Below are positions 6,538 through 21,331 of a stretch of 44,347 nucleotides of DNA, one piece after another. How positions within the stretch are numbered: position 1 is the stretch's first letter; every line of letters starts with the position of its first letter. Origin of the DNA: a virus (lineage: Duplodnaviria > Heunggongvirae > Uroviricota > Caudoviricetes); the IMG/VR virus record IMGVR_UViG_2627853983_000003. One strand, 5' to 3'. A program made the translations under genes and the position numbers. The notes beneath the pieces were generated by a model that had not been told where the DNA came from, did no database searches, and saw only the letters and a list, made by a program, of their open reading frames with translations.

Positions 6538-6595
6538 AAAAAGGGCGGCAGAGCAGTCACGGAGTAAAACTGATACCGCCAAACGTCACCAGAAA
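6538..6595 (-). ncRNA. dicF: DicF small RNA (ftsZ-targeting, Hfq-dependent), processed from the dicB-operon transcript
   Basis: Seen: minus strand reads TTTCTGGTGACGTTTGGCGGTATCAGTTTTACTCCGTGACTGCTCTGCCGCCCTTTTT, ending in a GC stem plus U-run. This matches my recollection of E. coli DicF and sits in the ~460-bp ORF-free, hairpin-rich gap between ydfC and dicB. Ends approximate because DicF is cut from a precursor. Confidence 0.7.
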
Positions 6596-11673: not shown

Positions 11674-11688
11674 TTGCCGGAGGCGCTT

Positions 11689-12114
11689 ATGGCAAAAGTA
11701 TTTACACAAGAAGAGCGGGAAAAAATTAAAGGGCAGGTTGTTGAACTTGTACGTCTGAGCGGTCGCGAGACGTTGCGGCAACTGGAAGCCAAGACAGGTG
11801 CGACAAGATATCTGATGAGTGTTCTCGCCAGAGAGCTGGTTGCCAGTGGCGATGTATACAACTCTGGTTACGGGTTATTCCCGTCTGAACAGGCGCGTAA
11901 GGACTGGCAAAATGCTCGCAAAAAACTCTCAAGGGCAAAGGTGAAGAAACCTGCAGTGGTTGATCCGGACCTTATCTGGTCGTTACCAGACGGCGAAATA
12001 CGCCGCTACGACAGGCGCCTGAATATAATCTGTCGCGAGTGCCGGAAGAGCGAAGCTATGCAGCGTGTACTGGCATTTTATCAAGGAAATGTTAGGTATT
12101 TTAGACGTTACTAG
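11689..12114 (+). CDS. Hypothetical protein (141 aa)
   Basis: Seen: ATG at 11689 with GGAGG Shine-Dalgarno; the ORF-track start at 11674 is upstream and in frame. Basic C-terminus with one CxxC; no family recognised. Confidence 0.45.
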   Translation: MAKVFTQEEREKIKGQVVELVRLSGRETLRQLEAKTGATRYLMSVLARELVASGDVYNSGYGLFPSEQARKDWQNARKKLSRAKVKKPAVVDPDLIWSLPDGEIRRYDRRLNIICRECRKSEAMQRVLAFYQGNVRYFRRY

Positions 12115-12267
12115 ATTAAAGAGCATTAGTTCAGATGTGAATTGACATTTTCATGGCGCAGGGTAGAGCCAGCGTGGTTGTCCGCTTTGCGTCAAAACCA
12201 GATATTACCAGATTTAGACATATATTCCCGATAGCCCTGCTCTGATGCTACACTCTGTGCTATTTTC

Positions 12268-12954
12268 ATGACCCCAATAAAAATATTTATGACTATTGCT
12301 GATTTCAAACGGCCTAAATTGGAGCTCCCAAACGGGGCAAACAAACTACTACTGCACTCTTGCTGTGCTCCATGTTCCGGTGAAGTGATGGAGGCGCTTC
12401 AGGCCTCGGGAATCGACTACACCATCTTTTTCTACAACCCGAACATTCATCCTCAGAAAGAGTATTTAATTCGTAAGGATGAAAATATTCGCTTTGCTGA
12501 ACAACACGGCGTGCCGTTTATCGATGCTGATTACGACACCGACAACTGGTTTGAACGTGCCAAAGGAATGGAATGGGAGCCTGAGAGGGGGATCCGTTGT
12601 ACCATGTGTTTTGACATGCGTTTTGAGCGGACAGCGTTGTACGCTGCTGAAAATGGTTTCAGTGTGATCAGCAGTTCACTGGGCATTTCACGCTGGAAAA
12701 ATATGCAGCAGGTTAACGAGTGTGGGCGGCGAGCTGTTGCGCATTATCCGGGTATGGTGTACTGGGATTATAACTGGCGCAAGCAGGGCGGCTCGTCCCG
12801 TATGATTGAAATCAGCAAGCGCGAAAAATTCTATCAGCAGGAATATTGTGGCTGTGTGTATTCTCTGCGCGATACCAATCTACACCGCAAATCTCAGGGA
12901 CGCCCTCTTATCAAAATTGGCCAACTCCACTACGGAAAAGAAGAGAAGGAGTGA
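12268..12954 (+). CDS. queH: QueH-like protein (DUF208 family; putative epoxyqueuosine reductase), moron
   Basis: Seen: N-terminal [11 protein letters not shown] motif that I recall as the hallmark of QueH/DUF208 Fe-S enzymes, plus further conserved Cys (CTMC, CGC). Preceded by a 150-bp ORF-free region with TTGACA-like hexamers, suggesting its own promoter. Assignment is motif-based only. Confidence 0.55.
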
Positions 12955-13079
12955 TTTTATGGATCACCTTTCTGATTGATTTCATATTGGCGAGGTGACG
13001 TGAGTTAAGTAGAATGGCTGCGGGTGCTTGAGGCTATCTGTCTCAGGCATGAACACTGAAAGGCAGATAGAGAAAAGCC

Positions 13080-13150
13080 CCAGTTAACATTTCGCGTCCT
13101 GCAAGACGCTTAACATTAATCTGAGGCCCAATCTATGTCTCACAAATGTA
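13080..13150 (-). ncRNA. Putative Sok-like antisense RNA of the hok/mok locus
   Basis: Inference from locus architecture: hok loci carry a short antisense RNA across the mok translation start. Seen: candidate minus-strand promoter (TTGCCT-17-TAACCT) around 13155-13185 firing across the mok start. Boundaries are approximate. Confidence 0.3.
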
Positions 13151-13191
13151 GGTTAGCCTCTTACGTGCCGAAAGGCAAGGGGAAGCAGGCT

Positions 13192-13347
13192 ATGAAGCAG
13201 CAAAAGGCGATGTTAATCGCCCTGATCGTCATCTGTTTAACCGTCATAGTGACGGCACTGGTAACGAGGAAAGACCTCTGCGAGGTACGACTCCGAACCG
13301 GCCAGACGGAGGTCGCTGTCTTCACAGCTTACGAACCTGAGGAGTAA
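13192..13347 (+). CDS. hok: Hok-family type I toxin (51 aa); the in-frame upstream extension from ATG 13135 is the mok reading frame
   Basis: Seen: MKQQKAMLIALIVICLTVIVTALVTRKDLCEVRLRTGQTEVAVFTAYEPEE, a Hok/Gef-family sequence as I recall it; the 70-codon mok-like ORF (13135-13347) contains it in the same frame. Confidence 0.8.
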   Translation: MKQQKAMLIALIVICLTVIVTALVTRKDLCEVRLRTGQTEVAVFTAYEPEE

Positions 13348-16618: not shown

Positions 16619-17668
16619 ATGGCTAATACTGTAAAAATATCCAGTTGTGAGTTAATCAACGCCGACTGCCTGGAATTTATCCGGTCGTTACCCGAAAATT
16701 CTGTTGACCTGATAGTCACGGACCCGCCGTACTTTAAAGTGAAGCCTGAGGGCTGGGATAACCAGTGGAAGGGCGACGATGATTACCTGAAGTGGCTGGA
16801 CCAGTGTCTGGCGCAGTTCTGGCGGGTGCTGAAACCTGCCGGAAGTCTTTACCTGTTCTGTGGTCATCGCCTGGCATCTGATATCGAAATCATGATGCGT
16901 GAACGCTTCAGTGTGCTGAACCATATTATCTGGGCGAAGCCGTCCGGACGCTGGAACGGATGCAACAAGGAAAGCCTGCGGGCGTATTTCCCCGCCACAG
17001 AGCGCATTCTGTTCGCGGAACATTATCAGGGGCCGTATCGTCCGAAAGATGCCGGGTATGCGGCGAAGGGCAGTGCACTGAAACAGCATGTGATGGCCCC
17101 GCTGATTTCTTACTTTCGTGATGCGCGCGCGGCCCTGGGGATAACGGCAAAACAGATTGCAGATGCCACAGGAAAGAAAAACATGGTGTCGCACTGGTTC
17201 AGTGCCAGTCAGTGGCAGCTACCGAACGAAAGCGATTATCTGAAATTACAGTCGCTGTTTGCCCGGGTGGCAGAAGAGAAACATCAGCGCGGTGAACTGG
17301 AAAAGCCCCACCACCAGCTGGTGGATACGTATACGTCACTGAACCGGCAGTATGTGGAGCTGCAGAGTGAATATAAGCATCTGCGGCGGTATTTTGGTGT
17401 GACGGCGCAGGTGCCGTACACGGATGTGTGGACACATAAACCGGTGCAGTTCTATCCCGGGAAACATCCGTGCGAAAAACCGGCAGAAATGCTGCAGCAG
17501 ATAATCAGCGCAAGCAGTCGTCCGGGTGACCTGGTTGCAGATTTTTTTATGGGCTCAGGTTCAACGGTAAAAGCGGCACTGGCGCTCGGGCGTCGTGCGA
17601 TTGGCGTTGAGCTGGAGACCGGACGTTTTGAGCAGACAGTCAGGGAAGTTCAGGGTTTAATCGTTTGA
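16619..17668 (+). CDS. DNA methyltransferase (N6-adenine or N4-cytosine; beta-class motif order), orphan
   Basis: Seen: motif IV DPPY (LIVTDPPYF) near the N-terminus and motif I (FFMGSGST) near the C-terminus, the permuted order of beta-class amino-MTases. No restriction endonuclease gene adjacent. Confidence 0.85.
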   Translation: MANTVKISSCELINADCLEFIRSLPENSVDLIVTDPPYFKVKPEGWDNQWKGDDDYLKWLDQCLAQFWRVLKPAGSLYLFCGHRLASDIEIMMRERFSVLNHIIWAKPSGRWNGCNKESLRAYFPATERILFAEHYQGPYRPKDAGYAAKGSALKQHVMAPLISYFRDARAALGITAKQIADATGKKNMVSHWFSASQWQLPNESDYLKLQSLFARVAEEKHQRGELEKPHHQLVDTYTSLNRQYVELQSEYKHLRRYFGVTAQVPYTDVWTHKPVQFYPGKHPCEKPAEMLQQIISASSRPGDLVADFFMGSGSTVKAALALGRRAIGVELETGRFEQTVREVQGLIV

Positions 17669-17716: not shown

Positions 17717-17792
17717 CGGCCCTTTAGCTCAGTGGTGAGAGCGAGCGACTCATAATCGCCAGGTCGCTGGTTCAAATCCAGCAAGGGCCACC
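17717..17792 (+). tRNA. tRNA with CAU anticodon (Met, or Ile2 if lysidine-modified)
   Basis: Seen: hand-folded cloverleaf with 7-bp acceptor stem GGCCCTT/AAGGGCC, D-arm GCTC-AGTGGTGA-GAGC, anticodon loop CTCATAA (anticodon CAT), T-arm GCTGG-TTCAAAT-CCAGC, encoded CCA. Confidence 0.85.
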
Positions 17793-17893
17793 ATCACAAA
17801 CCGCCATTAGCTTATCAGGAAGAGCAGACGACACGATAACAGGGTTGTTGGTGCGGGGGCGGGTCCCCGATGGCGGTCCATTATCGGTATTCA

Positions 17894-17970
17894 GCGTTGT
17901 TAGCTCAGCCGGACAGAGCAATTGCCTTCTAAGCAATCGGTCACTGGTTCGAATCCAGTACAGCGCGCCA
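17894..17970 (+). tRNA. tRNA-Arg (anticodon UCU)
   Basis: Seen: hand-folded cloverleaf with acceptor GCGTTGT/ACAGCGC (one G-U pair), anticodon arm ATTGC-CTTCTAA-GCAAT (anticodon TCT), T-arm ACTGG-TTCGAAT-CCAGT, encoded CCA. Confidence 0.85.
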
Positions 17971-18434: not shown

Positions 18435-18825
18435 ATACATATCTGGATTATCACCGGTTACGGTAAAAAGTGATTGCTTACTGTTTTTGTGAATGGCATT
18501 GCTGCAGCCGGATAATGTCAGTGCTGGCTGACGGTGTGCTGGTGGCGGGTGTGGTGGTTGTTGCTTTCCCGTTGCTGAAAAAGAAAACGCCAGACTGTTA
18601 GCCGGGTATCAGTTAGCGGGAGAAATTTTTAAATACTTCACAATTCAGGCGGTTGATTGTTGTCTGGTTTGCGGGGAGTTTGTTAAAAGAAACTGGCATG
18701 GTGAATCCCCCTGTGCGGAGGGGCAATCAGCGAGTAGGTATATGGGATAATCGCGGATTCAGGTGCTGGTACTGAATTCACCGGGAGGCACCCGGCACCA
18801 TGCAATGGCACATAGCGCCACTCTC

Positions 18826-18854
18826 CAGCCCCTCTCCGGAGGGGCTGTTTATAT
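18826..18854 (+). terminator. Intrinsic terminator inside the cargo island
   Basis: Seen: CAGCCCCTC-tccg-GAGGGGCTG 9-bp stem followed by TTTATATTGATTTT. Confidence 0.5.
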
Positions 18855-18881
18855 TGATTTTGTCAGATGTGAGTAAACTCC

Positions 18882-19217: not shown

Positions 19218-19477
19218 TTAGTTTCCTTGTTTATGCCTTGCTGGTGATGTTCTGAAAAGTATAAATGATATTTTTGATTGTAAACCATAGAGCAGAATTA
19301 TTTTTCTGATGTTGTTTATTGTTTATTTAAATGCAGGGTGGTTTATATCTCGTCTTGTAGTTTATCCATGCATATCTGCTTGATGATGAGGTTTTTATTT
19401 AAGGTATGGTTTTGTGTTTTTTCTGTATTACATGTCAGGTATTTTAAAGAATCATTTTTCAGATGGTGGAAAGAACC

Positions 19478-21331
19478 ATGGCATTTAAACACTATGATGT
19501 TGTCAGGGCGGCGTCGCCGTCAGATCTTGCGGAAAAGCTGACACATAAACTGAAAGAGGGCTGGCAGCCGTTTGGTAGTCCGGTGGCCATAACCCCTTAT
19601 ACCCTGATGCAGGCGATTGCAGCAGAAGGTGATGTGGTCGTCAGTGGTGCAACTGAGCCGGAGTGGTACTACGTCATCGTACTGGCCGGGCAATCCAATG
19701 CCATGGCTTACGGTGAAGGGCTTCCGCTTCCGGATTCATACGATGCGCCCCATCCGCGCATTAAGCAACTGGCCCGTCGTAACACAGTGACTCCCGGTGG
19801 TGAAGTATGCGTATTTAACGACATCATTCCTGCTGACCATTGTCTGCATGATGTTCAGGATATGAGTACGATTAACCATCCCCGGGCTGACCTGAGCAAA
19901 GGGCAGTACGGCTGTGTCGGACAGGGCTTACATATTGCCAAAAAACTGCTTCCGTATATCCCTAATAATGCGGGGATCCTGCTGGTACCATGCTGTCGTG
20001 GTGGTTCGGCATTCACCCAGGGCACGGAGGGGACATTCAGCGAGTCCACGGGGGCCAGTCAGGATTCGGCTCGCTGGGGAGTGGGTAAGCCGTTATATCA
20101 GGATCTGCTTTTCCGCACGAAGGCAGCATTGCAGAAAAACCCGAAAAACGTTTTGCTGGCGATATGCTGGATGCAGGGGGAATTCGATATGACGAATGCC
20201 AGTTACGCCCAGCAGCCAGCAGCATTTCTTGCAATGGTACAGCAGTTCCGTGCTGACCTTGCCGGGCTGGCGGCGCAGTGTCACGGTGGAAGTCCGGCAT
20301 CAGTCCCCTGGATTTGTGGCGACACGACATACGCGTGGAAACAAGAACACGGTACGCAATATGAAGTGGTATATGGTGCATATAAAGGTAAAGAATCCCA
20401 GCAGATTTATTTTGTTCCCTTTATGACCGATGGTAGCGGAGTTAATACACCGACAAACAACCCGTCAGAAGATCCTGATATTGCCGGGTCTGGTTATTAC
20501 GGTTCGGCATCCCGAACGAACAAAAACTGGGTATCATCAAATCGCCCGACGCATTTCAGCTCATGGGCGCGTCGTGGCATTATTCCCGATCGTATGGCAA
20601 CTGCTATTCTGAACGTAGCCGGTCGCACCTTAGCCTTCATTAGTGGTAAGGCACCGGAAATCAAACCCTCGCCCGGCGGCGACACGCCATCGGGGCCGTC
20701 TGAAGATGCATCCGTACGCACAATCTCCCTGTTGCCGACAGCCGGAGATGCTGCTGCGCAGGGCTGGAGCATTAAGAATGGCGGAATTCAGTTGTCAGAT
20801 GGTGTATTTAAGATCACCAAGCAGAGCAATAAAGCCTGGTCCCTGACGCGCCCGGTGGATGACGCAGTCTCCCTGCTGACACGGGGTGGCAGACTGAGCT
20901 GTAAGTTTCGACTGTCAGGCGCACTGACCAACAATCAGTTCGGTCTGGGAATTTATCTGTATACCGATGTAGCGTTACCTGACGTCGTGGCGATGACCGG
21001 GACTGGTAACCCGTTCCTGATGTCGTTCTTCACCCAGACCACAGACGGCAAACTGAATCTGATGCATCACAAGAAAGCAGGAAACACAAAGTTGGGCGAG
21101 TTCGGGAATTACAGTAACGACTGGCAGACGCTGGAGCTGGTGTTCACCGCCGGCAGTGCCACGGTTACTCCGAAACTGAATGGAGTGGCTGGCCCGGCAT
21201 TCCAGGTCATAAAAGACAGTCTGACACTGGGGCTGAATGCGCTGACGCTGACGGATATTACCAAAAATGCAACGTATGGCGTTGAGATAGAAAGTCTGGT
21301 GCTGGAGATAAATGCACCGGCATCATCATAA
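19478..21331 (+). CDS. nanS: Prophage sialate O-acetylesterase NanS-p (N-terminal DUF1737, SGNH-type esterase domain)
   Basis: Seen: N-terminus MAFKHYDVVRAASPSDLAEKL... and esterase motif VLAGQSNAMAY. Established: Stx and related lambdoid phages carry nanS-p between the stx position and the lysis genes. ATG at 19478 has a GGTGGA Shine-Dalgarno; 19463 is an alternative start. Confidence 0.8.
   Translation: MAFKHYDVVRAASPSDLAEKLTHKLKEGWQPFGSPVAITPYTLMQAIAAEGDVVVSGATEPEWYYVIVLAGQSNAMAYGEGLPLPDSYDAPHPRIKQLARRNTVTPGGEVCVFNDIIPADHCLHDVQDMSTINHPRADLSKGQYGCVGQGLHIAKKLLPYIPNNAGILLVPCCRGGSAFTQGTEGTFSESTGASQDSARWGVGKPLYQDLLFRTKAALQKNPKNVLLAICWMQGEFDMTNASYAQQPAAFLAMVQQFRADLAGLAAQCHGGSPASVPWICGDTTYAWKQEHGTQYEVVYGAYKGKESQQIYFVPFMTDGSGVNTPTNNPSEDPDIAGSGYYGSASRTNKNWVSSNRPTHFSSWARRGIIPDRMATAILNVAGRTLAFISGKAPEIKPSPGGDTPSGPSEDASVRTISLLPTAGDAAAQGWSIKNGGIQLSDGVFKITKQSNKAWSLTRPVDDAVSLLTRGGRLSCKFRLSGALTNNQFGLGIYLYTDVALPDVVAMTGTGNPFLMSFFTQTTDGKLNLMHHKKAGNTKLGEFGNYSNDWQTLELVFTAGSATVTPKLNGVAGPAFQVIKDSLTLGLNALTLTDITKNATYGVEIESLVLEINAPASS

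Follow-up and report, generated by a model that had tools for sequence, protein, structure and literature searches.

A queH gene carried by lambdoid prophages of Escherichia coli as a probable cobalamin-independent back-up to QueG

Our analysis concerns one gene in the IMG/VR virus record IMGVR_UViG_2627853983_000003, a stretch of 44,347 nucleotides (nt) that we call the window and that holds a lambdoid-type prophage of Escherichia coli, complete in its modules. The gene, queH, lies between the replication genes and the hok/sok locus of this prophage. QueH is described as a cobalamin-independent, Fe-dependent stand-in for QueG (PMC5372724; PMC5615194; PMC13443448), whereas QueG itself depends on cobalamin, or B12, for conversion of epoxyqueuosine (oQ) to queuosine (Q) in tRNA (PMC5615194; PMC13443448). 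The best explanation overall, and one that we consider probable, is that the phage captured a genuine QueH together with its promoter and carries it as cargo for the lysogen, in which it would provide a B12-independent back-up to QueG.

The assignment to the family comes from a full-length match. The Pfam QueH model (PF02677) aligns to the open reading frame (ORF) over profile positions 1-174 of 175, with a score of 221.5 bits (E 1.1e-65) against a gathering score of 23.5 bits. In a search of the PDB, the only relatives with solved structures are the Thermotoga maritima QueH entries 7lc5, 7lc7, 9deu, 9dco and 9d86 (E ~8e-22). An AlphaFold 2 model of the phage protein, built with 18 homologues as input and of moderate confidence (predicted local distance difference test 77.3, predicted template modelling score 0.78), retrieves T. 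maritima QueH in all of the top five Foldseek matches, with template modelling scores by target of 0.81-0.82 and a probability of 1.0. The TtuA and LarE sulfur transferases rank below QueH (E ~1e-4). The predicted structure thus contains the nucleotide alpha-hydrolase-like core fold seen in 7LC5. The initial annotation, made from the letters of the window, had called QueH from an N-terminal cysteine motif, and that reading was essentially right: both the DUF208/QueH profile and the alignment to a structurally characterised QueH agree with it.

Conservation extends to the residues expected of a working enzyme. Cysteines C25, C26, C104, C107, C187 and C189 (221-residue numbering) form a CC pair near the N-terminus, a CxxC in mid-protein and a CGC near the C-terminus. 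All six align with cysteines of T. maritima QueH and are the presumed ligands of the metal centre. Together with N52, R103, K137 and G188, they are invariant in 63 of 63 aligned family members. The family search covered 1.84 billion cluster representatives and returned 4775 members at E <= 1e-3; the alignment joins the query and T. maritima QueH to the 61 hits of full length in the top 150, and so leans toward relatives of the query and is not an unbiased sample. The phage protein and T. maritima QueH (PDB 7LC5, 7LC7, 9DEU) share the six cysteines, the predicted fold and the invariant H, N, R and K positions, although they are only ~31-33% identical and differ in that the former is encoded on a phage. 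The phage protein also has N-terminal and C-terminal extensions of ~20 and ~25 residues relative to T. maritima QueH, both of which are common to other gammaproteobacterial QueH proteins. By family, conserved residues and predicted fold the gene product is a QueH, and its enzyme activity is strongly predicted by homology.

The features of the gene and its leader are given below in window coordinates.

12289..12954, plus strand: queH coding sequence, 221 amino acids plus stop, defined from the ORF list, PF02677, the PDB match, the fold, the RefSeq coding sequence and conservation of the start.
12115..12288, plus strand: intergenic leader from the DUF977 gene to queH, defined from sequence and composition.
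12246..12254, plus strand: TGcTACACT, a putative extended -10 sigma-70 element, defined from conservation across phage and chromosomal copies.

The longest ORF in this frame starts with an ATG at 12268 (12268..12954, plus strand) and encodes 228 amino acids, the length reported in the initial annotation. This ORF reaches 21 nt further upstream than the one starting at 12289. When the upstream regions of the prophage copies and the closest chromosomal homologues are aligned, the ATG at 12268 is not kept in the nearest chromosomal homologues, whereas the ATG at 12289 (ATGACTATTGCTGA...) is conserved. The RefSeq protein WP_000150294.1, ‘epoxyqueuosine reductase QueH’, also begins at this second ATG. 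Because conservation and the RefSeq start agree, the real start is probably 12289 and the protein 221 residues long; the cysteine motif of the initial annotation stands, and its length probably does not. Its description of the region before the gene as free of ORFs also proved correct, since the 153-nt gap between the DUF977 gene and the ATG at 12268 contains only short ORFs of <=30 amino acids. The leader is AT-rich, with a guanine-plus-cytosine content of ~43-46% compared to 50-56% in the phage genes on either side.

The gene lies within window positions 12115-13134, a cargo hotspot in this prophage family, which is bounded as follows.

11674..12114, plus strand: DUF977 gene, bounding the cargo slot on its left (Pfam PF06163, E 7e-28).
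13022..13347, plus strand: hok/sok type I toxin-antitoxin locus, bounding the slot on its right (Rfam RF01794, 120.5 bits; hokD in the RefSeq annotation of an identical prophage). The Rfam sok RNA model covers 13022-13197, and the mok/hok ORF is 13135..13347.

The contents of this slot vary between related prophages. In E. coli DA33133 (L082:917-3492), a SMEK-domain protein, an S-adenosylmethionine-dependent methyltransferase and a hypothetical protein replace queH between DUF977 and hokD. In strain Z22-6 (L084:6062-7701), queH is followed by a complete Kiwa system, for which PADLOC reports KwaA at E 1e-101 and KwaB at E 3e-159, and FDAARGOS_943 has an additional small gene ahead of queH. The DUF977 gene and queH are separated by 157 nt in 75 of 80 IMG/VR loci, with a few loci carrying insertions on either side. 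In divergent prophages, homology to the cassette sets in at ~12218-12225, which is ~45-70 nt before the start codon. Thus, the slot is variable and queH is one of its accessory cargoes; sister prophages either lack the gene or have others in its place. The reading of the gene as a prophage moron holds: it sits between the replication genes and hok, related prophages carry other cargo at this site, and its -10 element is shared with chromosomal queH genes. As in lambdoid morons and other cargo between the replication genes and Q, an extra gene with its own putative promoter stands amid conserved modules and is absent or replaced in sisters. It differs from them in that we found no terminator after queH and in that its product is an enzyme of tRNA modification in place of a defence, virulence or exclusion factor.

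A scan in which each species was represented by one genome yielded 80 loci and points to an origin of the gene among the chromosomal queH genes of the Enterobacterales. Of these loci, only those of Escherichia and Shigella have phage neighbours and the lambdoid DUF977-hok context around queH. Erwinia, Pectobacterium, Serratia, Rahnella/Ewingella, Sodalis/Acerihabitans and Proteus instead have queH in genus-conserved synteny among ordinary chromosomal genes, for example next to a Dus-like tRNA-dihydrouridine synthase, transporters or dehydrogenases, and Enterobacter, Kluyvera, Scandinavium and Kosakonia have it in varied non-phage chromosomal sites. The nearest chromosomal proteins, from Enterobacter hormaechei, Scandinavium and Kluyvera, are 89-93% identical to the phage QueH, and others are 78-86% identical. 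Across Enterobacter, Kluyvera, Scandinavium, Erwinia, Serratia, Proteus, Providencia and Photorhabdus, the chromosomal genes resemble the phage copy in protein sequence (80-93% identity), in length, in a monocistronic layout and in a -10 element ~40 nt upstream that is identical in the nearest relatives. They differ from it in their setting, which is ordinary chromosome and not the lambdoid DUF977-hok interval.

The closest chromosomal queH, that of E. hormaechei (L004:7181-7885, ~93% identical), lies directly 3' of a short ORF resembling a tyrosine recombinase. This gene and the prophage copies have ~25 nt in common upstream of the -10 element. This shared sequence and the adjoining recombinase-like ORF are a hint that the capture may have gone by way of a small mobile island.

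The same upstream comparison suggests that the promoter travelled with the gene. The sequence TGCTACAnT is invariant ~42-44 nt upstream of the start in the prophage copies and in chromosomal Enterobacter and Scandinavium, and the sequence further upstream is unrelated. The element fits the extended -10 form TGnTAnnnT and predicts a transcription start at ~12261, with a leader of ~28 nt to the ATG at 12289. A -10-like hexamer is found 35-45 nt upstream of the ATG of chromosomal queH in many genera; in Erwinia, GTGACA-17 nt-TACACT stands at the equivalent distance. In our reading, queH stands alone on the chromosome under a promoter of its own, and the phage acquired the two together. The phage gene probably still has its own promoter, as it retains the TGnTACAnT element common to its nearest chromosomal relatives; conservation is the sole basis for this assignment. 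As we found no terminator, transcription of the early-right operon should also run on through queH.

Once in the phage, the gene has been maintained by strong purifying selection, as judged from pairwise comparison of coding sequences. Among phage-borne copies from the window, IHE3034, Z22-6, FDAARGOS_943, Shigella flexneri and phage HannyBb, the ratio of nonsynonymous to synonymous substitution rates (dN/dS) is 0.035-0.065; dS reaches 0.30, and the proteins differ at only 2-7 positions. Against the chromosomal homologues, dN is 0.04-0.14 and dN/dS 0.02-0.05, with dS saturated. The gene is also widespread. It is present in 995 of 5426 complete E. coli genomes (~18%), in up to 2 copies per carrier, and 985 of the 995 carriers keep >=80% of the gene. 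The carriers include the O157:H7 and O121 lineages and the extraintestinal pathogenic E. coli (ExPEC) strain IHE3034, and queH prophages are also found in E. albertii and Shigella. At least 190 IMG/VR viral contigs contain queH, as does the isolated phage HannyBb (45,272 bp), in which it is annotated as ‘hypothetical protein’. As the initial annotation stated, QueG is the usual enzyme of E. coli: queG is found in 5426 of 5426 complete genomes and thus in every queH carrier, so the phage enzyme is always a second oQ reductase.

Two observations concern QueH in phage collections. An alignment-based IMG/VR scan for diverse viral QueH gave the 100%-identical E. coli prophage copies again, so that family diversity was taken from the search of cluster representatives. 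Among the GenBank phage records, the QueH-bearing 328-378 kb ‘Acinetobacter phage MD-2021a’ records (CAKLQH020000001.1, CAKLQF020000001.1) resemble host chromosome, as do unannotated Staphylococcus and Listeria ‘phage’ contigs with QueH. With several such records included, QueH counts from this collection are too high as a measure of genuine phage carriage beyond the E. coli lineage.

A possible role for a second oQ reductase is suggested by the cofactors of the two enzymes. E. coli imports B12 and does not make it. As QueG needs a cofactor that the cell is unable to make, the phage gene would probably be of benefit by freeing the maturation of Q-tRNA from external B12. We propose that a lambdoid phage lineage of Escherichia and Shigella took a chromosomal queH, with its extended -10 promoter, from an Enterobacterales host and kept it as moron cargo in the variable slot between DUF977 and hok/sok. 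In the lysogen, the gene would be expressed from its own promoter, and during lytic growth it would probably also be reached by read-through from the early-right operon. Phage QueH would then act on the host oQ-tRNA made by QueA, doubling host QueG, and as a cobalamin-independent iron-sulfur enzyme it would convert oQ to Q at position 34 of tRNA-Asp, tRNA-Asn, tRNA-His and tRNA-Tyr. QueG (YjeS) and QueH would thus carry out the same predicted reaction on tRNA in every queH-carrying E. coli, although they are unrelated in fold and cofactor, QueG being cobalamin- and Fe-S-dependent and QueH working without cobalamin.

Tgt and QueA make oQ-tRNA in E. coli (pathway: PMC9508795; PMC5372724), and the need of the oQ-to-Q step for a cobamide was originally shown in E. 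coli and Salmonella (Frey et al., 1988, as cited in PMC4646009). Staphylococcus aureus keeps both QueH and QueG, and the difference in their expression has been interpreted in terms of which cofactor is available (PMC13443448). A further step would be to regard prophage queH as a true lysogenic-conversion gene that uncouples Q-tRNA maturation from cobalamin supply and thereby alters NAU/NAC decoding and host fitness. This stronger proposal is possible but, in our judgement, doubtful.

Several points weigh against the B12-independent back-up role. The position of T. maritima QueH Asp13, at which a D13N mutant has a solved structure (PDB 9dco), is occupied by C29 in the phage protein, giving CCAPC in place of CCAPD. 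Cysteine is the common state, present in 59 of 63 aligned sequences compared to 4 of 63 with aspartate, so that CCAPC is the usual family form and the T. maritima form a minority one in a sample that is skewed to relatives of the query. NCBIfam models gave no match to the protein. A strict two-hexamer promoter scan calls nothing on the plus strand of the gap; it passes over TGcTACACT because it demands a -35 element and no good one is present. No terminator-like site was found from 12955 to 13134, and the predicted fold of 12940-13030 is no better than that of shuffled sequences (z = -0.93). With no promoter call and no terminator, the classic promoter-gene-terminator anatomy of a moron is only partly present. 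In addition, the activity of phage QueH is read from homology, and the selective benefit is a conjecture, since it presupposes that oQ and Q differ physiologically in E. coli.

The position of the gene would also suit a lytic-phase auxiliary metabolic gene, in which an oQ-to-Q enzyme expressed from the delayed-early rightward operon keeps the GUN-anticodon tRNAs modified for synthesis of late proteins. queH is co-oriented with the replication genes and the Q antiterminator and lies between them, read-through would be expected given that no terminator was found upstream or downstream, and the free-living isolate HannyBb retains the gene. However, the conserved -10 element of stand-alone chromosomal queH predicts expression without phage induction, the host always has QueG, and the slot otherwise carries cargo of benefit to a lysogen, such as Kiwa. 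Pools of tRNA modification are, we reason, unlikely to turn over much within one lytic cycle, and we regard a primarily lytic role as unlikely. A neutral passenger, picked up by illegitimate recombination and persisting only through the abundance of its prophage, would account for the full redundancy with queG, the lack of a terminator or a tidy cassette boundary, and the many prophages of this type that do without queH. The selection data argue the other way: among copies with dS values as high as 0.30, the reading frame is intact and only 2-7 residues have changed, nearly all carriers (985 of 995) retain >=80% of the gene, and the promoter element is conserved as well. Neutral carriage is therefore very unlikely.

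A repurposed protein is harder still to reconcile with the data. Here the substrate would be something other than oQ in tRNA, such as a 7-deazaguanine derivative in DNA, or the protein would serve in defence or counter-defence. Phages do use 7-deazaguanine chemistry on DNA (PMC6884629), and related prophages fill the slot with KwaA and KwaB or with the SMEK-domain protein and methyltransferase. Yet the phage protein is 80-93% identical to housekeeping-type chromosomal QueH, retains every invariant residue and evolves at a dN/dS of ~0.04, with no sign of relaxed or diversifying selection. The different substrate suggested in the initial annotation is thus unlikely, and we find repurposing as a whole hardly credible. 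Phage clusters for 7-deazaguanine modification of DNA, which combine DpdA with FolE, QueD, QueE and QueC, belong to the same queuosine/7-deazaguanine metabolic family but differ from this prophage, since no tgt/dpdA, queC, queD, queE or folE was found among the annotated genes of an identical prophage or among the Pfam-scanned neighbours. In the absence of DpdA and preQ0-synthesis genes from the prophage, we rejected a DNA-modification role. PADLOC matches phage QueH to no defence-system model. Protection against colicin E5, an obvious candidate as a nuclease that cleaves exactly the Q-tRNAs, was likewise rejected, because E5 does not distinguish G from Q (PMC1635277).

Apart from its cargo, the prophage has a conventional lambdoid layout, which we assembled from Pfam scans of the neighbours and the RefSeq annotation of an identical prophage. 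From the left, it comprises an integrase, an excisionase, an exonuclease, dicB/DicF, a LexA-family repressor, a cro-like gene, YdaT and a helix-turn-helix replication initiator, followed by a DnaC/IstB-like ATPase, DUF1627, DUF977, queH, hokD, DUF968, RusA and the Q antiterminator. The right part contains a DNA methyltransferase, tRNA-Ile(CAU), tRNA-Arg(UCU), a SASA-family esterase, lysis genes, terminase, capsid and portal. This order confirms the earlier placement of queH between the replication module and hok. The initial annotation had also linked queH to phage tRNA genes as its neighbours.

17718-17793 and 17894-17970: phage tRNA genes, called by ARAGORN as Met(CAT) and Arg(TCT); RefSeq gives the first as tRNA-Ile, of the lysidine-dependent Ile2 type.

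That link does not survive. The two genes, tRNA-Ile2(CAU) and tRNA-Arg(UCU), lie ~4.8 kb downstream of queH, and sister prophages carry Ile/Lys/Thr/Gly or Ile/Arg/Thr/Gly sets. Queuosine is found only on tRNAs with GUN anticodons, namely those for Asp, Asn, His and Tyr. Since the phage tRNAs are not substrates, we rejected the idea that queH serves them, and their proximity to queH is without functional meaning. Rfam detected no preQ1 or other riboswitch upstream of queH.

Other features of the window stand apart from queH. Its left end has matches to C4 antisense RNA and the isrK Hfq-binding RNA (1430-1517 and 1541-1615, both minus strand), and positions 1-2000 match phage-type genes (Rha regulator, DUF4376, ash family, recombinase). 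An otherwise identical prophage in strain 4/1-1 is flanked by ompW at the position of the window's left end. Given this difference between the ompW flank and the phage-type genes seen here, the prophage of the window may border on a second phage element or be integrated elsewhere. The DicF antisense small RNA (6543-6594, minus strand, 76.7 bits) lies in the dicB/cell-division-inhibition region, and a match to the gammaproteobacterial small RNA STnc100 (18667-18856, plus strand, 132 bits) lies between the phage tRNAs and an iraM-like gene on the opposite strand. An N6/N4 DNA methyltransferase is encoded upstream of the tRNAs (16619-17668, plus strand), and a 622-residue NanS-p-like protein with DUF1737, a SASA sialate-O-acetylesterase domain and DUF6645 is encoded at 19463-21331 (plus strand). 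Such an esterase and methyltransferase are typical accessory genes of lambdoid prophages of the enterohaemorrhagic E. coli type.

The molecular identity of the protein was already known, as RefSeq names this exact protein QueH in ~1000 E. coli genomes, and the gene is accordingly less unexpected than the initial annotation held. PHROGs files it in phrog_3217, ‘unknown function’. Our literature searches turned up no account of a QueH borne by a phage or prophage in E. coli. A 2019 survey of phage 7-deazaguanine genes reported that homologues of QueA, QueG and QueH were lacking from the viruses it covered (PMC6884629). The enzyme itself is ordinary; its phage-borne location and biology appear to have been overlooked.

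The prophage queH corrects the published impression that viruses have no Q-specific genes such as QueA, QueG and QueH. Queuosine affects the speed and accuracy of decoding at Asp, Asn, His and Tyr codons. If the gene does remove the dependence on B12, it would show clearly how a temperate phage can rewire the tRNA modification of its host, and hence translation, by means other than a toxin or a defence system. Such uncoupling would matter when B12 is scarce or the BtuB receptor is lost, and its effects would reach roughly a fifth of E. coli, with O157:H7 and ExPEC lineages among them. The statement that E. coli uses QueG would then fail for ~18% of strains, with a bearing on studies of oQ and Q levels, of B12 ecology and of queG mutants in non-K-12 backgrounds.

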